The notes under the pieces are model-generated. The model was not told the DNA's origin. It worked only from the letters and a program-made list of their open reading frames with translations, and did no database searches. Source: an uncultured cyanobacterium (GTDB lineage Bacteria > Cyanobacteriota > Cyanobacteriia > Cyanobacteriales > CAWCAG01). From it: DNA of 64,000 nt. Shown here piece by piece: positions 10,650 to 22,577 of this stretch. The position numbers were made by a program, and so were the translations under genes. Every line of letters starts with the position of its first letter. Within the stretch, counting starts at the first letter, position 1. The stretch spans positions 256,001 to 320,000 of the forward strand of contig CAWDOD010000010.1 of NCBI GenBank assembly GCA_963803805.1, read 5' to 3'.

Positions 10650-11240
10650 ATGGATGCTAAAGAATTTTTTCAGCATAGTGCTGGTCAATGGAAATCTCAA
10701 CGCACTACCCATCATTTACCCTTTAGACGTGCGGAGACAGGAGGATCAGATATTTATGTGGAGTATTTAGACAAAGCTCATCCTAAAGTTGTGGAAATTT
10801 GTGAGATCCATGACACAGATCCTAACTTAACAGTAGGGGGAGCCTTTGTTAGTTGGAATGGTTCTATGGCTTGGGATAAAGAAGATGAAAATCACGAAGG
10901 AACCACTGTGTTTGCCCTTGTACCTGAAGCAGAAGATCCTCGTAAAGGAAAACTACTACGAGAAAGAGGTTACGCCGAAATTGTTCCTGTGGCAGGACAT
11001 TATGAGATGGACGATGAAGAGGGATTAGTTCTAGTAACGGAATATGAAACCATGAGCATTATTGAGCGTTTTTGGTTTGCTAGTCCTGATATTCGGATGC
11101 GAACTAGTACGGTAAAAAGATTTGGTGGTTTCAATACTGCTACTTTCTGTATAGAAGTTCGGGCAAAACCTGAAGAAAATGAATCACCTCAAAGCAATAA
11201 CCTTACCGAAGAGCCAATCTATAGTTTAAGCGGCTGGTAG
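10650..11240 (+). CDS. cpcS: Phycobiliprotein lyase CpcS/CpeS family
   Basis: EFFQHSAGQWKSQRTTHHL, LLRERGYAE, ERFWFASPDIRMR. Confidence 0.92.
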   Translation: MDAKEFFQHSAGQWKSQRTTHHLPFRRAETGGSDIYVEYLDKAHPKVVEICEIHDTDPNLTVGGAFVSWNGSMAWDKEDENHEGTTVFALVPEAEDPRKGKLLRERGYAEIVPVAGHYEMDDEEGLVLVTEYETMSIIERFWFASPDIRMRTSTVKRFGGFNTATFCIEVRAKPEENESPQSNNLTEEPIYSLSGW

Positions 11241-11411
11241 GAACAACGATGCTGTACCTGTTATCGGAAGATTTGAGTAAAGATAAGTAACGATAGGTAA
11301 AGTTAATTCAAGAATCAAGATTGTCATTCCCCAGTAAATCCGTAGAGAGTCCCTTCCTAGCTTATGATTGGGATTAAACTTTGCAAACTTTTATAAGATT
11401 TTGGAGGTTCA

Positions 11412-12167
11412 TTGGTGGCTATTCCACTTTTAGAATACGCGCCCAAAAGTCAAAATCAGCGTGTAGCTGGATATCTTGTGCCAGGTGACGAACAGCCGAA
11501 GATTTATTCTACAGAAGATATACTTTCTTCTGTGGCGATGGATGAGCTAATTGAAGCAGCCTATCGTCAGATATTCTTCCATGCTTTCAAATCAGATCGT
11601 GAGTCTGTTCTAGAGTCACAACTTCGTAATGGTCAGATTACAGTACGGGATTTCATTCGCGGACTGTTGCTTTCTGAAACCTACAGAAATAGCTTCTATG
11701 AGAAAAACAGCAACTATCGCTTTGTAGAACACTGCATCCAAAAAGTTTTGGGGCGTGAACCCTACAATGAGCGGGAGAAAATTGCTTGGTCTATTGTAGT
11801 TGCTACTAAAGGAATCAAGGGATTGGTTGATCAGCTTCTAGATAGCGATGAGTATTTAGAAAACTTTGGTTATGATACTGTTCCTTTCCAACGCCGTCGG
11901 ATACTTCCTGGGCGAGAAGAGGGGGAACGACCTTTTAATATCAAATCTCCTCGCTACGATGCTTATCATCGCGCCCAGTTGAATTTCCCCCAAATCATCT
12001 GGCAAAACCAAGTGCGTAGCTTCACTCCCCAAGATAAGAAGGCTGTGGCTGGTTCTCCTACTCAATTTTTGGATATGGCACGCAATATCAACCCCAAGGG
12101 TGGTAATATACCCAGGGTTTCTGCGATGAATATCAGCCTTGATAAAGTACCTTATCGTGGTTCTTAA
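11412..12167 (+). CDS. cpcG: Phycobilisome rod-core linker CpcG (CpcG1 type)
   Basis: [44 protein letters not shown]; hydrophilic C-terminus, so not CpcL; the true start may be GTG at 11415. Confidence 0.95.
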
Positions 12168-13621: not shown

Positions 13622-14077
13622 CTAAATACCTGACAGCTTAACTGAAGTAACCCAAGTAGAAGCACCATCCTGCCAATACTCTTTTTTCCAAATTGGCGCA
13701 TTATACTTCAATGTATCAATAGCATAGCTGCAAGCAGCAAAGGCTGCTGCTCTGTGGGGAGAGCCAATGGCGATTAAGACACTAATTTCCCCAATTTTTA
13801 GTTTGCCGATGCGATGGTGAATGACTACTTTTTTTACTTCTGGCCATTTTTGGCGAATTTGGTTAGCAATTTGCTCAAATACTTGTAGTGCCATCGGTTC
13901 GTAGGCTTGATAGTCAAGGTAAGCAACGGTGCGATCGCCTGTTTTGTTGCGTACCATACCACTCATAAGCACAACCGCCCCGTTTCCTGGCTCATCTGCT
14001 AGTTGATAAACTTGCTCAAGGGATAAAGGTTGAGGGGTGATGACCAAGTTATCAGAAGATGATGCTTCTAAATTCAT
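13622..14077 (-). CDS. moaE: Molybdopterin synthase catalytic subunit
   Basis: GAVVLMSGMVR, YQAYEPMA, HRIGKL, SPHRAAAF, APIWKKE. Confidence 0.95.
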   Translation of the reverse strand: MNLEASSSDNLVITPQPLSLEQVYQLADEPGNGAVVLMSGMVRNKTGDRTVAYLDYQAYEPMALQVFEQIANQIRQKWPEVKKVVIHHRIGKLKIGEISVLIAIGSPHRAAAFAACSYAIDTLKYNAPIWKKEYWQDGASTWVTSVKLSGI

Positions 14078-14423
14078 AGAAAGTATTTGCTAAGTAAGGA
14101 TTTTAAGATTTTGATATCATTTCTGCCATATATCATAAACAGCTTTTTTCGTCAAAAAAACTTTTTCAACCACCCTGAAAATTTGTTAAACCTAAAACTT
14201 CTATTAACTAAATTCTGCCGCCAAATACTAACTAAATTAACGGTTTATCAAGGTTATAGGGATTGAGTTTGAATTTTAGATATAAAAAGAGCAGTATGAT
14301 TTTCTTGATTTTACCATCAAACGACGCAAATACGTCTTTTTCAGAACAATTTCCCCCTTGACATTTATGAAGATGAAGTTGTGTAAATTCAGGATGTTTA
14401 ATAACAACATCCATCAAGCAAAA

Positions 14424-14456
14424 TTATTACTTATTACTTATTACTTATTACTTATC
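14424..14456. repeat. Heptamer tandem repeat (TTATTAC)n, STRR-type
   Basis: About 4.5 copies read directly. Confidence 0.8.
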
Positions 14457-14534
14457 AGACGCTGCTCCCTATCTTTTTCGGATAAATCAGGTTAAATTAA
14501 CTTGTAGCTATGTAAGTAAGGCGAAGCTCATCTT

Positions 14535-15788
14535 ATGGATGCAAATAATTTTGCTGAACTGAAGTTTTTGTTAGAGTTGGCTTCTTATTCTAACCAAGAA
14601 GCATCTCTTAGTTCTTTTTTAACAAAATCCAAGAGCAAACGAAACAAACTTGACAGTAAACAAAGGGACGAAATTTGTCAGAAGTTAAGGGAAAGGGGGA
14701 TAGTCGATTTTAGCCGTGAGATTGATACTGTTGAAATTGCCCCTCCAGGAAATGCTTTACTAAATTTAGAAGCAAAGGAATTACCAATTTCAGTTGAGGA
14801 GTTTGAAGTATTAGAAAAGATTGCTAAAAAGGGTAAGGCTAAGTTAAGCGACCTGACAACTAAAAAGTTTAAGGCGGCGGCGAGAGATAAAATTCTCCAA
14901 GTTCTTTTGGAGAAAAATTTAGTTTCGGCAGAGATGGAATTAAATATTATCACTGTAGAAATTGCTCCTCCCGGAACTGCTTTATTGGAGTTGGAAACTG
15001 AGGAATTGCCACTTTCAGAAAAGGAATTTAAAGTATTAGAGCAAGTTGCTAAAAAAGGTAATACGAAGCCAAGCAAGATTACTTTTAAGATTGACAAAAA
15101 AAGTCTCGCAGCAGCAGAAAGAGATGAGATTTTGCAAGACTTTTTGGATAAAGGTTTAGTTACCGCGGAGATAGAAAAAAATATCGCCACTGTAGAAGTT
15201 GCTCCTCCGGGAAGTGATTTACTAAACTCTCAAGGGAATAAACCACCAATTTCAGAAAAAGAGTTTAAAGTATTAGAAAAAATTGCTAAAACAGGCAAAA
15301 TAAAGCCTAGTGAAATTAAAAGTCCTAAAGCCGCAGCAAGAGATAAAATTCTGCAAGATTTCTTGGATAAGGGTTTAGTTACGGCGGAAATGAAAGTTAA
15401 GCGCCAAGGGGCAAAAGTTTGGTTAACTGACCAAGGAAAAGATTGTTTAGAGAAAGTTAATCAACATTTCTTCTCTTTGCAAGAAGTTGCAGAAAAGAGA
15501 GTAGAAGTTGAAGAGAGTAAACCTACAGATGAAGAGATTTTCCAAGCGATTAAAGATTTAGATCATAAAATGAGTTTGGATAATTATTTACCAATTTTTT
15601 ACCTGCGAGACAAGTTTCAACCGCCCCTTTCTAGGGAAGAGTTAGATCAAGCACTTTATCGCCTATCAAAAGATGACCGGATTGAGTTGGGTGCGTTGCA
15701 GGAAACGAGAGTTTATAACTCTACAGAACTGAGTGCTGGTATTCCTCAAGATATTGGTGGACCTCTGTTTTTTATCTCTGTTAGCTAA
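14535..15788 (+). CDS. rcaD: RcaD-like putative DNA-binding protein with three tandem ~75-79 aa repeats
   Basis: ELKFLL N-terminus and C-terminal NYLPIFYLR...PPLSREELDQALYRL...GIPQDIGGPLFFI recalled from cyanobacterial RcaD-family proteins; repeats start at 14727, 14952 and 15189. Confidence 0.65.
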   Translation: MDANNFAELKFLLELASYSNQEASLSSFLTKSKSKRNKLDSKQRDEICQKLRERGIVDFSREIDTVEIAPPGNALLNLEAKELPISVEEFEVLEKIAKKGKAKLSDLTTKKFKAAARDKILQVLLEKNLVSAEMELNIITVEIAPPGTALLELETEELPLSEKEFKVLEQVAKKGNTKPSKITFKIDKKSLAAAERDEILQDFLDKGLVTAEIEKNIATVEVAPPGSDLLNSQGNKPPISEKEFKVLEKIAKTGKIKPSEIKSPKAAARDKILQDFLDKGLVTAEMKVKRQGAKVWLTDQGKDCLEKVNQHFFSLQEVAEKRVEVEESKPTDEEIFQAIKDLDHKMSLDNYLPIFYLRDKFQPPLSREELDQALYRLSKDDRIELGALQETRVYNSTELSAGIPQDIGGPLFFISVS

Positions 15789-15817
15789 TTTTGCAGTAAA
15801 CCAAATTTTTTCTTCCT

Positions 15818-17869
15818 ATGACTCCTATAGATCAGCTTATTGCCCAGGAAGCTAATCCTTTTGATACCATAACTTTAACGCCCGGTAATTTTTGGAAAGA
15901 AGAACAGAAGCAAGAGTTAGTTGTTGATTCTATTCATCAAGAATTAGTTGTTGAAATAGAAAAATATCTTGATCTTGTAGCTAAGGATGGTCGTAGTCGT
16001 AGTTTACTTTTAATTGGAGATTCTGGTACAGGTAAAAGCTATTTATTAGGGCGAGTTAAGAAGTTATTTAACACTAAAGCTTTCTTTGCTTATATTGGCC
16101 CTTGGCCCGATGGTAATTATATTTGGCGACATACATTACGCTATTTAGTTGATAGTTTGATGTATGTGCCAGAAAACCAAGAGCAATCACAACTTTTACT
16201 TTGGCTCAATGGTTTGCTGCAAGGAAAAGAACAAAGTGTTGTTACTAAGTTGCTTGGGGAACGTAAACTTTTCGTCAACAACCTTAGAGCAGCTTATCCT
16301 ACTGGTATTTACAAGGCCAAAGAGTTTTTTACTGTTCTTTATAATCTTACTCAACCTGAACTATATACCCTTTGTTGTGACTGGTTAAAAGGAGATGATT
16401 TAGATGAAGAAGATAGAAAAAGAATTGGAGTTAAACGTAGTATTGATAATGAAGAAGCGGCACAAAATATTGTTGATAATTTTGGTGGAATTGCTAAGGA
16501 TACACAACCGATTGTCCTTTGCTTTGATAATTTAGATAATATCCCCCTCGCTAATAACGGTTTATTGGATTTACAACCTTTATTCAGAGTTAATTCAACT
16601 ATTCACAACCAGTATCTCAAGAACTTTCTGATCATTATTAGTTTTGTTAAAAGTACTTGGCAACTAAATAGTACATCTGTCCAATCAGCAGATAGAGTTA
16701 GAATTGCAGCTAAGTTAGCTCTCAAACCAATTAATTTAGACCAAGCAGAAGACCTTTGGCGAAACCGACTTTATCCTCTTCATCAAAAAGTCAGGTCTAA
16801 ACCTCAATCGCCTATTTTTCCTTTGAGCAAACAAGCTTTAGAACAAAAACATCCTGACAGTAAAACTAAGCCTCGTTCGGCGCTGAAGTTAGGAAAAGAA
16901 TTATATCAGGAGTATAAAAATCAACTCAAGGATAATCTGATTGTTGAGGCTAATCAAGTTACTAGTGAAAAACAACTTGGTGAGGAAAATAAAGTTAGTG
17001 AAGGCAATCAAGTTGGTAAGGATAATAACTCTAGTAATGAAAAAGAGCAATACTTAGGGGCATTTAAGCTTATTTGGCAAAAAGAGTTCAATAAAATCAA
17101 AAAACAAGTAACAAAAGTATCGCAATTCTCATCGCCAGAATTGATTAAAATGTTACAGGAAGCTTTAACTGCTTCGCGGGTTACTAATATTGAAACCAAG
17201 CTTTTAGCGGGGAAGTATAGTAGTTATTCTTTTAAATTTGCCAAAGAGAATGGTACAGAAATAGGAGTAGTTTGGAGTGAAGATGCTAACTTATCAAGCT
17301 TTTCCTTTTTAATGAAGGCTTGTAAGAAAGCTCTCAAAGATAAGCGATGCCAAAATCTCTTTTTAATTCGCGACAATAAATTGGGAAACCCTCAAAATCG
17401 AGGATACAAAGACTACAAACAGATTTTTATTGACTCCCCTCACCAACATCATAAACCTAATCAAGAGTCTGTTTGCTATCTGGCAACTTATCATAGTTTA
17501 GTTAACTCTGCTCGTTCAGGAGAATTAGTTGTGGGGGACGAAACTCCTGACTTAATAGAGTTAGAGAATTTAATTTCCCAAACCAAAGTTCTAGATAATT
17601 GTGATTTGTTGCAGAGACTTTTAGAAAAGGTTGTAGTGACAACACCGCCATCTGACAGAATCAAAGAGATTTTCTTGAACTTAATGATGAGCCAACAACT
17701 TATGGGTAAACCCACTTTGCTTGAAAATGCTAATGTTCAGTTTGCCGAAGCCAGTCCTGAGCAATTAGAAATAGCTATTAAAGAACTTTGTCAAGAACAG
17801 AAACTTAAAATTCTTGACCCCAATGCCAAGCCGGAAGCACAACTAATTTGTTGGGTTCCTCAAAAATAA
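15818..17869 (+). CDS. P-loop/AAA+ ATPase (RcaG-like) with C-terminal extension
   Basis: NPFD N-terminus, Walker A GDSGTGKS, Walker B LCFDNLD, ADRVRI; 29 bp downstream of the rcaD-like gene. Confidence 0.8.
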   Translation: MTPIDQLIAQEANPFDTITLTPGNFWKEEQKQELVVDSIHQELVVEIEKYLDLVAKDGRSRSLLLIGDSGTGKSYLLGRVKKLFNTKAFFAYIGPWPDGNYIWRHTLRYLVDSLMYVPENQEQSQLLLWLNGLLQGKEQSVVTKLLGERKLFVNNLRAAYPTGIYKAKEFFTVLYNLTQPELYTLCCDWLKGDDLDEEDRKRIGVKRSIDNEEAAQNIVDNFGGIAKDTQPIVLCFDNLDNIPLANNGLLDLQPLFRVNSTIHNQYLKNFLIIISFVKSTWQLNSTSVQSADRVRIAAKLALKPINLDQAEDLWRNRLYPLHQKVRSKPQSPIFPLSKQALEQKHPDSKTKPRSALKLGKELYQEYKNQLKDNLIVEANQVTSEKQLGEENKVSEGNQVGKDNNSSNEKEQYLGAFKLIWQKEFNKIKKQVTKVSQFSSPELIKMLQEALTASRVTNIETKLLAGKYSSYSFKFAKENGTEIGVVWSEDANLSSFSFLMKACKKALKDKRCQNLFLIRDNKLGNPQNRGYKDYKQIFIDSPHQHHKPNQESVCYLATYHSLVNSARSGELVVGDETPDLIELENLISQTKVLDNCDLLQRLLEKVVVTTPPSDRIKEIFLNLMMSQQLMGKPTLLENANVQFAEASPEQLEIAIKELCQEQKLKILDPNAKPEAQLICWVPQK

Positions 17870-17877
17870 ATAAAACA

Positions 17878-20637
17878 ATGCCTTACTTAAGCGACTCTCA
17901 AGCCATTTGGCAAACAATTAACAAACTAACCCAAGCAAAAGTCCTGTGGTTAGATACAGAAGTGGCTGATTGGCGAACCAGAAATCCTCGACTTTCTCTG
18001 ATTCAAGCTTTAGTTGATGCTAAAGATTTTACAGGAGAAACTGCTTATGTTTTAGATGTTTTGCAAACACCAGAATTAATCAACTATTTTATTAGCCAAA
18101 TTATGGCTAATCCTCAGATTGAAAAAGTTTTTCATAACGCAAGTTACGATTTAAGATTTTTAGGGGGAAACAAAGCTAAGAATATTACTTGTACTTTAAA
18201 GTTAGCTAAAAGTAATCGTCACTTATTGCCAGAAGTAACCAACTTACAACTAAAAACCTTAGCCACAGAATTATGTAACTTTCCCGTAGCCGATGTCGAA
18301 CCTCAAGGGAGTGATTGGGGAAAACGTCCTTTAACAGCGACGCAGTTAAAGTATGCTCAAATGGATGTAGTTTATTTGGCACAGTTACATAATTACTTTC
18401 TCAAACTAACTCCCATAAATGTCAGGAAAAGACCTCTTTCTTCCCTCACTGTCACCAAAGTTTGTTTAGCTTTTGAATGTCCCCGTCTTTTTTATCTCGG
18501 ACATAAATCCGGCGGAAAAACCATGTTCGTCCCTGCTAATAAAGCCCCCGGTATTGGTAAAACCTTTCATCAATTGTCTGATCGCTTCGTCAAACTAATC
18601 AAACAAGAAGCTCAATTTCAACAACTATTAATAGCTACTCCACAACAACTAAATGCCACAGAAGTAGCTCAGAAAATGCAAGAATTATTATATGAATTAG
18701 CATTCTTTCCCTATTTACAAAATGCCATTAGAGTTGATCCGGCTAAAGCACAGCCTCTGTATACAATTTGGCAAGGATTACAAAATCTCATTGCACGTTG
18801 GGCAGAATTATTAGTTAGTAACCGTGCCTTTTGCCCTGCCGAAGAAGTTGTCAGTAAAACGTTCATCTCCCAAGAACTAGACATTAGTTACAAATTTATT
18901 TTAAACAACAATGAAGAACAATTAGTTAAAGGCAGATTTGATAGTTTAGTTTATGACTTTTCCCAACATCGGCTTTGTGTTGTCGATTATAAAACCTACC
19001 ATAGCCCCGACAAATCTGCTCAATTAGCTCAAGTTGCTCTCTATGGTTATATGCTTAAAAATAGAGTGGGAGTTCCCATAAATTCAGCCGTTTATACTGT
19101 CTTACCTAGCTGGGAAGAATCAACCTTAACCTGGGAACAATTAGAAGCAACCATTCATCAACTTATTCCCGAAAAACTCAAACAAATACAACAGTGGTTA
19201 AACTGGCAACAACCTCAAACCAATCCACCACCACCTACCTCTCAACCAGAATTACTTTGTCCTCTCTGCCCGCAACAACAAAAGTGTCAAACTTTCTTCC
19301 CAAATCCTCCTTTAATTGAAGGAAAATCTACTACTGCTAATCCCATTCCTAAACCCAAATTTGCTCCTCCACAAAAATCAACTCTTCCTACTAATCTAAC
19401 TGAAGCAAAAACACCAATTACAGAATCTCAATCTACTGTAGAAGCTAATATTCCTGAAACCAAAACAACACCTCAAACTGAGCCAATTATCGCCCCACAA
19501 GTAATTCTTAAAAATGAGCCAACAACTACAGCAAAACCAGTTGAGAAAACTAACCCAAATACAGAACCTCAACCAACTATAGAAGCCGATAAAATTGGTG
19601 AACAAGTAGTAACAATTTTAAAATCATTTAAAACCGATGTTGAATACTTAGGTGCAGATATTGGACCAGCTTTTATTAGAGTTAAACTCAAACCTAACTT
19701 AGGAGTTAAAGTAAGTTCTTTATTGAAATTAGCTGATGACTTACAAGTACAACTAGGCATTAGCAACCCTCCTTTAATTGCTCCGCAAGCTGGTTATGTT
19801 AGCGTTGACTTACCCCGCTCAAAAAGAATAATTGCCCACTTCAAAACTTATATACAACCAGAAAATTCTTCCCCCACAGCCCCAGTTAAAATCGCCATTG
19901 GCATCAACTTAAACAACCAATTAATAGAAGCCAACTTAGCTGACTCCAACACTTGCCATTTCTTAGTAGGAGGAACTACAGGTAGTGGCAAAAGTGAATT
20001 TTTAAGAGCATTACTCCTCAGTCTTTTATATCGCCATCCCCCTAACCAACTAAAAATTGCTTTAGTAGATCCTAAACGAGTCACCTTTCCAGAATTTGAA
20101 AAAATGCCCTGGCTACTTTCCCCGGTAGTTAAAGATAGCGATCGCGCCATTGAATTAATGGAAACATTAGTCATAGAAATGGAACGTCGCTACCAACTTT
20201 TTGAACTCAATTCCTGCCCTAACTTAACTGCCTATAACCAACACCTAGCACAACAGCAAAAAAAACCAGAACCTCCCATCGTTTGCATCTTTGATGAATA
20301 TGCAGACTTTATGGTAGAAAAAGAAACTCGCCAAACCCTAGAACAAAGTATCAAGCGTTTAGGGGCAATGGCAAGGGCGGCTGGTATTCATTTAATCATT
20401 GCTACTCAACGCCCAGAAGCCAGGGTTGTCACCCCCATCATTCGCTCTAACTTACCTGGTAGAATTGCCCTACGTACTGCAAGCGAAGCAGATTCAGAAA
20501 TCATTTTAGGAGGCAAACAAAAAGAAGCAGCTTGTTTATTAGGCAAAGGAGATTTATTGTTTTTAAATAATAGTAAATTAGAACGATTGCAGAGTTTGTA
20601 TGCTCAAGAAATCAAGCTTAATTTAGTTAATAGTTGA
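17878..20637 (+). CDS. Fusion of DEDDy 3'-5' exonuclease, Fe-S PD-(D/E)XK nuclease and FtsK/SpoIIIE ATPase (no TM or gamma domain)
   Basis: WLDTE / FHNASYDL / YAQMD; ECPRLFY, GRFDSL, VVDYKT, QVALY, CPLCPQQQKC; GGTTGSGKS, VDPKRV, IFDEYAD, ATQRP, LLGKGDLL; ATG at 17878, 8 bp after the upstream stop. Confidence 0.88.
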   Translation: MPYLSDSQAIWQTINKLTQAKVLWLDTEVADWRTRNPRLSLIQALVDAKDFTGETAYVLDVLQTPELINYFISQIMANPQIEKVFHNASYDLRFLGGNKAKNITCTLKLAKSNRHLLPEVTNLQLKTLATELCNFPVADVEPQGSDWGKRPLTATQLKYAQMDVVYLAQLHNYFLKLTPINVRKRPLSSLTVTKVCLAFECPRLFYLGHKSGGKTMFVPANKAPGIGKTFHQLSDRFVKLIKQEAQFQQLLIATPQQLNATEVAQKMQELLYELAFFPYLQNAIRVDPAKAQPLYTIWQGLQNLIARWAELLVSNRAFCPAEEVVSKTFISQELDISYKFILNNNEEQLVKGRFDSLVYDFSQHRLCVVDYKTYHSPDKSAQLAQVALYGYMLKNRVGVPINSAVYTVLPSWEESTLTWEQLEATIHQLIPEKLKQIQQWLNWQQPQTNPPPPTSQPELLCPLCPQQQKCQTFFPNPPLIEGKSTTANPIPKPKFAPPQKSTLPTNLTEAKTPITESQSTVEANIPETKTTPQTEPIIAPQVILKNEPTTTAKPVEKTNPNTEPQPTIEADKIGEQVVTILKSFKTDVEYLGADIGPAFIRVKLKPNLGVKVSSLLKLADDLQVQLGISNPPLIAPQAGYVSVDLPRSKRIIAHFKTYIQPENSSPTAPVKIAIGINLNNQLIEANLADSNTCHFLVGGTTGSGKSEFLRALLLSLLYRHPPNQLKIALVDPKRVTFPEFEKMPWLLSPVVKDSDRAIELMETLVIEMERRYQLFELNSCPNLTAYNQHLAQQQKKPEPPIVCIFDEYADFMVEKETRQTLEQSIKRLGAMARAAGIHLIIATQRPEARVVTPIIRSNLPGRIALRTASEADSEIILGGKQKEAACLLGKGDLLFLNNSKLERLQSLYAQEIKLNLVNS

Positions 20638-20646
20638 TAATTAAAA

Positions 20647-21690
20647 ATGGAACAAGAAAACATTAGTTGGTCAGGACTGCTACAACAGTTATTAGATCAA
20701 GAGTCTCTTTCTCAAAATCAAGCCTCTATTCTCATGGAAGGTTGGTTACAAGAAAAAATTCCCCCTGTCCTTTCTGGGGCGATTTTAGCGGCACTCCAAG
20801 CTAAAGGCGTATCGGCTGCTGAATTAGCGGGAATGGCCAAAGTCTTAAAATCTCAGTCTTTGCAACAAGAAACTCTGCAACATAACCAACCTGTTATTGA
20901 TACTTGCGGTACAGGAGGGGACGGGGCAGCCACTTTTAATATTTCCACAGCAGTAGCCTTTGTTTGTGCTGCTGCTGGGGTTGCTGTAGCTAAACATGGC
21001 AATCGTTCAGCTTCTAGCAAAGTTGGTTCTGCGGATGTCTTAGAAGCATTAGGCATCAATCTTTCTGCCCCTGCCGCAAAAGTACAAGCTGCCCTACAAG
21101 AAGTAGGTGTCACCTTCCTTTTCGCCCCTGGTTGGCATCCTGCCATGAAGAGTGTTGCTTCCCTACGCCGCACCTTAAAAATTAGAACAGTGTTTAATCT
21201 CCTTGGCCCTTTAGTCAATCCCTTAAGCCCCACGGGACAAGTGATTGGCGTTTCCAACCCTGAATTTCTCACCCCAATGGCAGAAGCCCTCAACCAAATA
21301 GGTATACCTAAAGCTATGGTTTTACATGGTCGGGAAAAACTAGATGAAGCAGGATTAGCAGATGCCACAGATTTAGCCTTAGTTGCCCAAGGAAAGACTG
21401 AAACCACCAGTATCAATCCCTCCGAGTTAGGTTTAGCTTACGCCCCTACAACAGCCTTACAAGGCGGTGACATAGCCGAAAACACGACTATTCTCACAAA
21501 CATTTTGCAAGGTAAAGGAACTAAGGCACAACAGGATGTTGTCGCCTTGAATACTTCCTTAGCTTTGCAAGTTGCTGATGCTGTTCCTTGGGGAGAATAT
21601 CAACAAGGCATCAAGTTAGCCAAGGATATTCTGGGTAGTGGGGAAGCTTGGTTAAAAGTAGAAGAATTAGCCAAGTTTCTAGCTGCCTAA
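20647..21690 (+). CDS. trpD: Anthranilate phosphoribosyltransferase
   Basis: [32 protein letters not shown]. Confidence 0.97.
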
Positions 21691-21755: not shown

Positions 21756-22577
21756 GTGCAAAAAAAACTAACTATGGCGATTACGCTCCGCGTAGCAGCA
21801 AAGCTGAGCGCAACTATTTTTATCTTCCTGCAAACGGGCTGTGATTTTCTCTTAGGGTTTGATACCCCAACCAACCCTCACTTACTATTGGGTAATCCTA
21901 GCAATGCTGGATTAGAACCAAATAATTATTTAATAGAAAAGCCTCAATATGTTTTATCCTACAATCGAGAACGGGGAACAGCTAATTGGGTAGCTTGGCA
22001 GCTTAACCAAAGTTGGTTAGGTAAAGTAGAAAGACAAGATGATTTTCGTCCCGATGCCACCTTACCAGAAGATTGGTATCAAGTCAGACCAAACGACTAT
22101 AGAGGAAGCGGCTATGATCGTGGTCATCTTACCCCTTCAGCAGATCGCACAGACACTATAGAAGATAACTCAGCGACTTTTTTAATGACCAACATTGTAC
22201 CCCAAACCCCAAATAACAATCGGGGTGCATGGCGAGAGTTAGAAGAATATTGTCGAGAATTAGTAGAGGAAGGGAAAGAACTTTACATCATTGCTGGAGT
22301 TTATGGGGAAAGGGAAAAAATTGGCCCTGATAGACAAATAACCGTACCAACCTATACTTGGAAAGTTATCGTGGTTTTAGATGAACCAGGAGCAGGTTTA
22401 AATAATATCTCCGAAAATACTAGAATTATCGCTGTAGATGTGACCAATCGTGTCAATACCAGTTCAGATTGGGAAAACTATCAAGTCAGTGTCGATCAAC
22501 TAGAAGCTAAAACTGGCTACGACTTCCTTAATCGTGTTCCCGTCTCAATTCAAGATGTGATTGAAAGTAGAAGGTAG
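21756..22577 (+). CDS. Sugar-non-specific DNA/RNA endonuclease (NucA-like), probable lipoprotein
   Basis: LLLGNPS, YDRGHLTPSAD, FLMTNIVPQ, NRGAW; lipobox-like LQTGC. Confidence 0.9.
   Translation: MQKKLTMAITLRVAAKLSATIFIFLQTGCDFLLGFDTPTNPHLLLGNPSNAGLEPNNYLIEKPQYVLSYNRERGTANWVAWQLNQSWLGKVERQDDFRPDATLPEDWYQVRPNDYRGSGYDRGHLTPSADRTDTIEDNSATFLMTNIVPQTPNNNRGAWRELEEYCRELVEEGKELYIIAGVYGEREKIGPDRQITVPTYTWKVIVVLDEPGAGLNNISENTRIIAVDVTNRVNTSSDWENYQVSVDQLEAKTGYDFLNRVPVSIQDVIESRR

Follow-up and report, generated by a model that had tools for sequence, protein, structure and literature searches.

The three-gene operon

This analysis focused on three co-oriented genes in a 64,000-nucleotide (nt) stretch of DNA from an uncultured cyanobacterium of the order Cyanobacteriales (contig CAWDOD010000010.1, positions 256,001 to 320,000; the whole of this stretch is called the window below). 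They encode an RcaD-like protein (D), an RcaG-like ATPase (G), and a protein (F) in which two nucleases are joined to an FtsK-type motor. Judged from its sequence, the operon belongs, as a cyanobacterial representative, to the Orc/CDC6-coupled HerA/FtsK 'capture' cassettes described by Rakesh, Aravind and Krishnan (Nucleic Acids Res 2024, PMC10853773), which it matches part for part save for one domain of G. The family is known from computational prediction, and the operon is a further member of that predicted kind.

The genes lie between moaE and trpD, with spacings of 29 nt (D-G), 8 nt (G-F) and 9 nt (F-trpD). Three co-oriented genes in this position, with gaps of 29 and 8 nt, were also what an earlier note on the same DNA (the original prediction, made from the sequence of the window) had described, and the open reading frame (ORF) coordinates and Pfam matches bear this out. 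The ORF list begins F at a TTG codon, while the ATG at 17878 gives a protein of 919 amino acids (aa), the size of its closest public homologues. The genes and their parts are as follows.

14535-15788, plus strand: D (RcaD-like gene), 417 aa, from the ORF list
14535-15509, plus strand: D, N-terminal helix and chain of MarR/PadR-like winged-helix units, residues 1-325
15513-15785, plus strand: D, C-terminal domain of winged-helix fold, residues 327-417, the best-conserved portion of RcaD proteins
15818-17869, plus strand: G (RcaG-like gene), 683 aa, from the ORF list
15818-16927, plus strand: G, ORC/Cdc6-clade AAA+ ATPase, residues 1-370, Walker A (GDSGTGKS) and Walker B (CFDNLD) both intact
17105-17635, plus strand: G, middle alpha/beta domain by predicted secondary structure, residues 430-606, placed after the AAA+ module and ahead of the C-terminal winged helix
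17636-17866, plus strand: G, C-terminal winged helix, residues 607-683, of all folded portions of the cassette the one that evolves fastest
17848-20637 in the ORF list (TTG start), plus strand: F (nuclease-FtsK gene), 919 aa from ATG 17878
17890-18405, plus strand: F, DEDDy 3'-5' exonuclease, residues 5-176 (DNA_pol_A_exo1, PF01612, E 2e-27)
18445-19290, plus strand: F, RecB/Cas4/AddB-type PD-(D/E)XK nuclease with four cysteines (Fe-S), residues 190-471 (PDDEXK_1, PF12705, E 2e-13)
19291-19545, plus strand: F, linker rich in Pro, Thr and Gln, residues 472-556, mean pairwise identity 0.11
19546-20637, plus strand: F, FtsK alpha and RecA-like beta motor, residues 557-919, with Walker A GGTTGSGKS, Walker B DE and the TQRP arginine

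The nuclease-translocase protein

The earlier description of F as two nucleases on an FtsK motor was correct, since in addition to the two nuclease families it matches FtsK_alpha (PF17854, residues 557-646, E 4e-9) and FtsK_SpoIIIE (PF01580, residues 667-846, E 2e-42). Conservation was judged over 38 aligned homologues. Residues D26, E28, D91 and Y159 of the exonuclease are invariant and D163 is nearly so (at least 90%); in the restriction endonuclease-like (REase) nuclease, D355, K372, Q382, Y389, C461, C464 and C470 are invariant, with C201 and E/D370 nearly so; and in the motor the Walker A residues 699-706, D806, E807 and R845 do not vary. Cysteines C201, C461, C464 and C470 follow the pattern of the AddB/Cas4 iron-sulfur nucleases, and Cas4 models of PADLOC and NCBIfam match this nuclease at the domain level, just as the PADLOC models SspH and mad8 match the motor. 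No N-terminal membrane domain is present, the exonuclease beginning at residue 5, and there was no Ftsk_gamma match at E <= 0.01, the protein ending 73 residues past the Pfam motor match. With all catalytic motifs intact, F is predicted to be a soluble FtsK alpha-beta pump with two active nucleases.

F is the sole PF01580 match in the genome of the window, which is 97% complete. A sample of the phylum was searched with each of the three proteins (200 genomes, or 201 counting the window's own), and PF01580 scored above its cut-off in just 39 of the 201; a Synechococcus elongatus control had none. Most sampled cyanobacteria are thus without an FtsK-family gene, so the label 'FtsK' is misleading here. 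According to a review (PMC7766704), the 'FtsK' entries of model strains are of the YjgR/HerA clade or plasmid-borne, and none is a true FtsK except a plasmid gene of Anabaena.

Two other kinds of protein share parts of F. Separate exonucleases of about 307 aa, which share 50-59% identity with F residues 1-180, are common in the same order (e.g., G020:C1:6076885-6077418); none was found in the window's genome with F as the query. Giant ORFs of 1774-1815 aa carry a C-terminal FtsK motor 32-39% identical to that of F (G004:C13:39475-40656, G196:C19:14488-15246 and G198:C1:4052517-4053341), and are probably DndH/SspH-type proteins of other systems.

The RcaD-like and RcaG-like proteins

G matched the Pfam family AAA_16 with 33.6 bits (cut-off 32.6). 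Its fold was predicted with a confidence (pLDDT, predicted local distance difference test) of 86.3, and TnsC, BrxC, MuB and STAND NTPases were close runners-up in the fold comparison. BrxC of BREX and TnsC of Tn7/CAST are also ORC/Cdc6-clade ATPases of conflict or mobile systems, but they resemble G at the fold level only, and no BREX or Tn7 partner genes lie near the operon. The middle domain of G, in which W486, E488 and L516-I517-R518 are conserved, had no Pfam match at E values up to 10 and no likeness to the PD-(D/E)XK profile of F (hhalign probability 0.3).

D is enlarged in the window, at 417 aa compared with 245-311 aa in 72 other loci, and the difference lies in extra winged-helix repeats; no recent tandem duplication within the gene was detectable at the DNA level. 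Fold matches indicate a chain of MarR/PadR-like winged helices. Pfam gave only sub-threshold winged-helix matches (MarR, SarA/Rot, HTH_45, ScpB), Foldseek returned nothing at E <= 0.001, and when D and G profiles were compared with PDB sequences, just P-loop or weak MarR and Z-alpha-like matches came up. A likeness of D to DndG, SspB or FokI appeared neither in the top 50 fold matches nor in PADLOC.

Homologues of D that carry the NCBI label 'transcription factor RcaD' are 38-51% identical to it in alignments that span roughly half of D, the longer protein (E 1e-49 to 1e-56). Genes so named sit 5' of G and F in, for example, contigs L017, L032, L046, L061 and L081. The original prediction had suspected that the transcription-factor label might conceal another role, and this fits the finding that RcaD-named genes almost always precede a nuclease-translocase gene. 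A Tolypothrix protein of 285 aa (P0220) is 42% identical to D and equals in length the RcaD of Jones et al. 2009 (PMC2799420), as given in the available text of that article; P0220 is likely to be RcaD itself, although the original RcaD accession was not among the four accessions shown for it.

Contact between D and G was explored by complex prediction, on alignments built in this analysis. G with D residues 193-417 scored 0.59, compared with 0.01 for the best of three controls; at least 88% of contacts were common to the runs, and the pLDDT of the partner was at least 75. Of 80 solved complexes 58 attained the mark used, as did 2 of 110 mismatched pairs; at scores of 0.60 or below, those attaining it were only 7 of the 80 solved complexes and both of these mismatches. 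The prediction weakly suggests that D and G touch.

Conservation of the three genes as a unit

In the phylum sample, the fusion protein F was found in 23 genomes besides that of the window: 22 of the 64 genomes of the same order, 1 of the 13 of the same class, and none of the remaining 123, which include 73 small genomes of one family. By gene coordinates, G lies immediately 5' of F in 21 of these 23 genomes (in the other two, G071 and G162, the D-G pair is elsewhere), and D lies immediately 5' of G in all of them. The exonuclease is absent in 3 of the 23.

In a larger genome collection, relatives of F were encoded by 315 stretches, of which the best 80 were analyzed as loci. The order D-G-F, on one strand, occurs in 72 of the 80, across many cyanobacterial orders, with median gaps of 56 nt (D-G) and 33 nt (G-F). 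Of the other eight, five stop at a contig edge after G and a sixth is truncated at F; the remaining two (L034 and L049) lack D and G and have other genes 5' of F; the 467-aa ORF upstream of F in L049 was considered as a candidate G and excluded, as it has no homology to G. The genes that flank the triad in the window are not kept beside it elsewhere, moaE being nearby only in L040. The three genes are a conserved unit, as the original prediction had supposed.

D-G pairs also exist without F, as D-G-G' arrays or second copies. No recurrent effector was found 3' of these paralogous D-G or D-G-G' loci, where the genes encode an IS605 transposase, ABC proteins, a hydrolase or ThiE-type proteins. 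Since both G copies keep Walker A and Walker B, the D-G-G' loci are not the variant of the 2024 study in which Walker B is disrupted and a KAP protein is present. Extra G or D-G copies stand in tandem 5' of D-G-F in L044 and L073 (also in genome G026), and in L044 both extra G copies have kept Walker A and B.

Relation to known systems

The Orc/CDC6-coupled 'HerA/FtsK capture systems' were predicted, from genome comparison, to act against invaders (PMC10853773). In the available text of that article, section 22 names as their parts an Orc/CDC6 ATPase, an inactive REase between its AAA+ core and C-terminal winged helix-turn-helix (wHTH), an active REase, a HerA/FtsK motor and a wHTH; the wHTH protein has 2-4 such units, a subset has a 3'-5' exonuclease fused to the motor, and one set has an FtsK-alpha domain 'captured from the cellular versions'. 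The Orc/CDC6 part is predicted to place the apparatus on DNA, where the motor intercepts selfish DNA, and the same group restated this model in 2026 (PMC12839542, in the text available).

All but one of these parts have a clear counterpart in the operon. G corresponds to the Orc/CDC6-family AAA+ ATPase, F residues 190-471 to the active PD-(D/E)XK REase, F residues 557-919 to the HerA/FtsK motor with FtsK-alpha, the DEDDy domain of F to the motor-fused 3'-5' exonuclease of the subset, and D to the separate multi-wHTH protein, although within D the wHTH part is less conserved than the C-terminal domain (0.49 vs 0.64). The domain inserted before the C-terminal wHTH of the ATPase corresponds by position to G residues 430-606, where its identity as an inactive REase was not confirmed. 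The claim that the operon was an undescribed system therefore falls, the same architecture having been predicted already, as far as the available text of the 2024 article goes. The accompanying idea of a machine for recognition, loading, and translocation with cutting fared better: the parts fit, and the independent prediction agrees with it. A PADLOC search proposed as a check on novelty gave a divided answer, in that no model recognizes the system (F matches by single domains, G not at all), yet the architecture is known from PMC10853773. The words 'cyanobacteria' and 'Nostoc' do not occur in the available main text of that article, which was not among the papers naming both 'RcaD' and 'RcaG'. 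Literature searches found no experiment on a capture cassette or on a cyanobacterial nuclease-FtsK fusion. Capture systems are called 'mobile gene neighborhoods' in the available text, whereas the cyanobacterial branch described here is mostly vertical and chromosomal.

The rcaD and rcaG genes of Calothrix (Tolypothrix) PCC 7601 show homology to D and the same order, rcaD followed by the ATPase gene. According to Jones et al. 2009 (PMC2799420), RcaD, the subject of work by Noubir et al. 2002, was reported to bind the cpc2 promoter of this strain and to alter expression of red-light operons, and RcaG, a putative ATPase encoded 3' of rcaD, was proposed to assist RcaD binding; they noted the same gene pair in Lyngbya majuscula 3L. 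Locus L059, from Moorena producens 3L, has D-G-F. The published role is control of phycobiliprotein transcription, and the accessible part of that article does not connect it with any nuclease-FtsK gene downstream. The homology given here is to NCBI-named proteins and not to the deposited RcaD/RcaG records.

DndFGH and SspFGH likewise combine an FtsK/HerA motor, a nuclease and multi-wHTH recognition proteins, and the PADLOC SspH model matched F with an E value of 1e-65, but the match is confined to the C-terminal FtsK part (profile positions 1339-1737 of 1766). DndH and SspH are giants (>1500 aa) that have more modules at the N-terminus and are encoded next to DndFG or SspFG, while F has 919 aa, and the flanks of the operon in the window hold no phosphorothioate modification genes. 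As in HerA-NurA and AddAB/RecBCD, an ATP-driven motor would feed nucleases in F, which has the 'iron staple' cysteines of AddB/Cas4. The operon differs from both in having no NurA and no SF1 helicase but an FtsK motor with fused nucleases, and in being dispensable and patchy. Cellular FtsK/SpoIIIE shares with F the alpha-beta motor, Walker A and B and the arginine finger, but has a septal N-terminal membrane anchor and a gamma (KOPS/XerD) winged helix that F does not have; F carries two nucleases, which cellular FtsK does not, and is absent from most sampled cyanobacteria.

Inheritance, decay and rates of change

Trees of 77 F sequences (FastTree and IQ-TREE) placed 31 of 32 Nostocales in one clade. 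The order labels require 18 changes on the F tree, where the minimum is 12 and the mean of shuffled labels 32.2, and none of 200 shuffles was as low. An 'accessory origin' of the cyanobacterial copies, for which the original prediction saw only weak support, does not fit a tree that tracks taxonomy or the housekeeping neighbors. The clearest outlier is L035 (Aetokthonos hydrillicola), the F of which groups with Leptolyngbya-like sequences, apart from the other 31 Nostocales; this cassette may have been transferred or replaced.

The cassette has also decayed in some lineages. Three genomes of one Nostocaceae genus (G032, G044 and G059) retain just C-terminal fragments of F, in place beside a gene for a ParA-like ATPase, and three other genomes have a lone, diverged G with degenerating Walker motifs. 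In 33 of the 80 loci, from several orders, that ParA/MinD-like ATPase (AAA_31, 294 aa) is encoded directly 3' of F and in the same orientation (e.g., L036:12929-13810). Its gene is present in 58 of the 201 sampled genomes, many of them without F, and occurs almost throughout the order; in the window's genome it forms a tandem pair on another contig (G000:C2:150969-153365), unlinked to F. It was rejected as a dependent fourth component, being present without F and unlinked in the window's genome, and its position beside F looks like an old synteny block. An HSDR_N-ParA fusion of about 457 aa and a ParB_N/Rho_N protein of about 245 aa adjoin the cassette in L011, L015, L032 and L078, and in L095-L097 (Nostocaceae genomes G104, G160 and G166) the HSDR_N-ParA pair stands in the place of F, next to a lone diverged G.

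Rates of change differ between the parts of the cassette. Mean pairwise identities over 34 shared loci were:

F motor: 0.72
D C-terminal domain: 0.64
F exonuclease: 0.62
F REase: 0.58
G AAA+: 0.55
D wHTH part: 0.49
G C-terminal winged helix: 0.34

The winged-helix parts that presumably read DNA evolve fastest by this measure (0.34 in G and 0.49 in D, against 0.72 for the motor).

Relatives outside the cyanobacterial chromosomal branch

All-against-all phmmer comparison returned many REase-FtsK proteins of 600-710 aa without the exonuclease, 29-37% identical to F, with named examples in Myxococcota, Ca. Magnetomorum and Methanospirillum. A Methanospirillum-like contig (L101) encodes a 291-aa ORF, a homologue of G (hhalign probability 98.1, E 1.2e-13) and a PDDEXK+FtsK protein, flanked by a thermosome gene and a PAP2 gene; the 291-aa ORF shows no likeness to RcaD. 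Among cyanobacteria, a cassette copy without the exonuclease is carried by a 329-kb conjugative plasmid of Pseudanabaena PCC 7367, on which a phycobiliprotein lyase gene (L083:12344-12970) lies 3' of F. The closest of the phage matches were Cylindrospermopsis phages MH636380.1 and OQ625504.1, in which an FtsK motor is about 40% identical to F residues 592-912.

Surroundings of the operon in the window

The flanking features are as follows.

13622-14077, minus strand: moaE (PF02391), divergent, 5' of the operon
14078-14534, plus strand: intergenic region common to D and the divergent moaE, with the repeat TTATTAC x4.6 at 14424-14455
20647-21690, plus strand: trpD (PF00591 and PF02885), downstream of F

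The heptamer repeat is perfect and lies about 80 nt 5' of the D start codon. A scan for promoter-like sequences found 21, compared with 16.8 +/- 4.6 in shuffled sequences, which is the level of chance, and a terminator scan was also at chance level. The operon is AT-richer than its surroundings (GC content 0.366 vs 0.404 for the window), a value as low being found in only 6 of 290 overlapping, and so non-independent, 6.1-kb windows. The HIP1 site GCGATCGC, of which the whole window has 38, is missing from 13938 to 20138. This site-free stretch had been noted earlier as a mild sign of accessory origin, and while the stretch itself is real, a longest gap of this size is expected under random placement of the sites (simulated P = 0.62), so the gap is uninformative about origin, and HIP1 depletion was ruled out as a sign of foreign DNA.

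Two genes 3' of F, past trpD, lies a gene for a secreted-type DNA/RNA non-specific endonuclease (Endonuclease_NS, E 2e-61; 21756-22577), which is not kept near the cassette in other loci. Genes for a CpeS-like lyase and a phycobilisome linker (10650-12167) are situated 2.4-3.9 kb 5' of the rcaD-like gene. Homologues of CpeS or the linker were found in the flanks of 0 of 80 other loci, so their proximity in the window is probably coincidence.

Possible function of the cassette

In the mechanism suggested by the parts, the RcaD-like protein would read DNA through its chain of winged helices, and the RcaG-like ORC/Cdc6 ATPase would bind DNA in an ATP-dependent manner through its own C-terminal winged helix. 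Together, D and G would recruit or license F, the soluble FtsK alpha-beta motor of which, presumably as a hexamer, would reel in double-stranded DNA and pass the duplex to its own Cas4/AddB-like, 5'-end-processing Fe-S nuclease and its DEDDy 3'-5' exonuclease. As the DNA would be fed to both nucleases, both strands of the captured molecule would be degraded. That the proteins form a complex, that F is loaded, which way the DNA moves and what is targeted are all inferred from family properties and from the tight linkage of the genes.

The cassette in cyanobacteria is most likely a long-resident, mostly vertically inherited, dispensable chromosomal module. The function ranked first, with a probability of about 0.5, is to destroy DNA that invades the cell or is selfish, for instance plasmids, phage genomes and DNA entering by conjugation. 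It was placed first because relatives are scattered over bacteria and archaea, one copy is on a plasmid, the cassette is dispensable and decays, D-G pairs have multiplied, and the putative recognition domains evolve faster.

Several observations weigh against a role in defense, which is a comparative-genomics prediction. The cyanobacterial F branch is mostly vertical, its tree following taxonomy, unlike most defense genes, and the mean pairwise identity of F, 0.63, is high for an immune gene. In 43 loci with full 10-kb flanks, the recurrent neighbors are housekeeping-like: two glycosyltransferases (18 and 13 loci), the 294-aa ParA-like ATPase (24 loci) and the isoleucyl-tRNA synthetase IleRS (12 loci). 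A defense- or toxin-antitoxin-type domain occurs in the two nearest ORFs per side in only 10 of these 43, by an inclusive criterion and with no baseline. The flanking genes in the window are moaE, dapB and trpD. None of 300 matching phage records covers 80% of F, and no PADLOC model recognizes D-G-F. The middle domain of G was not confirmed as the inactive REase that the 2024 study places there. The conserved triad includes no methylase or other self-marking gene, which leaves discrimination of self from non-self unexplained, and RcaD is reported, in the available text of PMC2799420, to bind host phycobiliprotein promoters.

In the strongest alternative, a serious but clearly less probable one, the cassette would process endogenous DNA, an end-processing or clearing activity like that of HerA-NurA or AddAB acting on host DNA and targeted or licensed by RcaD/RcaG. 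Its tasks would be the resection of double-strand breaks, the removal of chromosome copies that are damaged or in surplus, or the clearing of trapped DNA. Vertical inheritance in stable housekeeping contexts, high conservation with all active sites intact, and the ParA-like gene just 3' of F in 33 of 80 loci are consistent with it, as is the reported binding of RcaD to host DNA (PMC2799420). The window's genome has no RecC and no PDDEXK_1 protein of AddAB or RecB size, only F and a 264-aa protein matching that family, a weak pointer drawn from this one genome. In its function, a hexameric FtsK/HerA-type pump coupled to nucleases of both polarities is akin to HerA-NurA. However, the fusion is present in only 22 of 64 genomes of the same order and decays in place; being patchy and decaying, it is not something on which a core process depends. 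Relatives are scattered over bacteria and archaea, D-G pairs multiply and occur without F, the ParA-like neighbor is near-universal in the order regardless of F and unlinked to it in the window's genome, and nothing in the present data ties D, G or F to damage responses.

A related idea, rather unlikely by our estimate, is a domesticated machine that would eliminate whole DNA molecules of the cell itself, such as surplus or damaged chromosome copies or resident plasmids, chosen by RcaD/RcaG. The rcaD phenotype of 2002 may then have been a side effect of action at the DNA level, or a polar effect on the nuclease-translocase, and in polyploid cells the machine may serve ploidy reduction or phosphorus recycling.

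It is improbable that RcaD is simply a transcription factor, with RcaG as its helper ATPase, for phycobiliprotein operons, and that the nuclease-FtsK gene is unrelated and co-transcribed by accident. This would agree with the binding of RcaD to the cpc2 promoter and the assistance ascribed to RcaG (PMC2799420, in the available text), with the NCBI name of the homologues, with D-G pairs that lack F, and with the CpeS-like and linker genes 2.4-3.9 kb upstream in the window. It does not account for the linkage of D-G-F in 72 of 80 loci, or for the archaeal-type contig that pairs a G homologue with REase-FtsK, and phycobilisome-gene neighbors were seen in 0 of 80 loci. G is an ORC/Cdc6-type DNA-loading or remodeling ATPase, which is not a usual transcription cofactor. 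Many carriers of the cassette are not known as chromatic adapters.

That F is the cellular FtsK, a division-site translocase for segregation and dimer resolution, is very improbable despite its public annotation as 'DNA translocase FtsK' or 'cell division protein FtsK', its alpha and beta domains of the cellular type and its position as the sole FtsK-family gene of the window's genome, since the membrane anchor and gamma domain, two defining features, are missing, only 39 of 201 sampled genomes have PF01580 and model strains no true FtsK (PMC7766704), and a segregation pump that carried two active nucleases would be hazardous.

Significance

RcaD, RcaG and F are parts of one conserved nuclease-translocase cassette. 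What this analysis adds to the predicted family is a cyanobacterial branch that is vertical, found in ordinary chromosomal contexts and decaying in some lineages, a set of scattered relatives without the exonuclease, and the recognition that the 'FtsK' label is misleading. Together with the label 'transcription factor' on RcaD, it misleads when hundreds of cyanobacterial genomes are annotated (the collection yielded 315 matching loci). It is unusual for an immune system to be passed on vertically, much as housekeeping genes are, and this leaves room for a role in handling the cell's own DNA. For the predicted capture systems, the cyanobacterial branch offers genetically tractable carriers as well as model strains that naturally lack the cassette. 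If an anti-plasmid function proves true, it would bear on the poor transformability and conjugation of some cyanobacteria.

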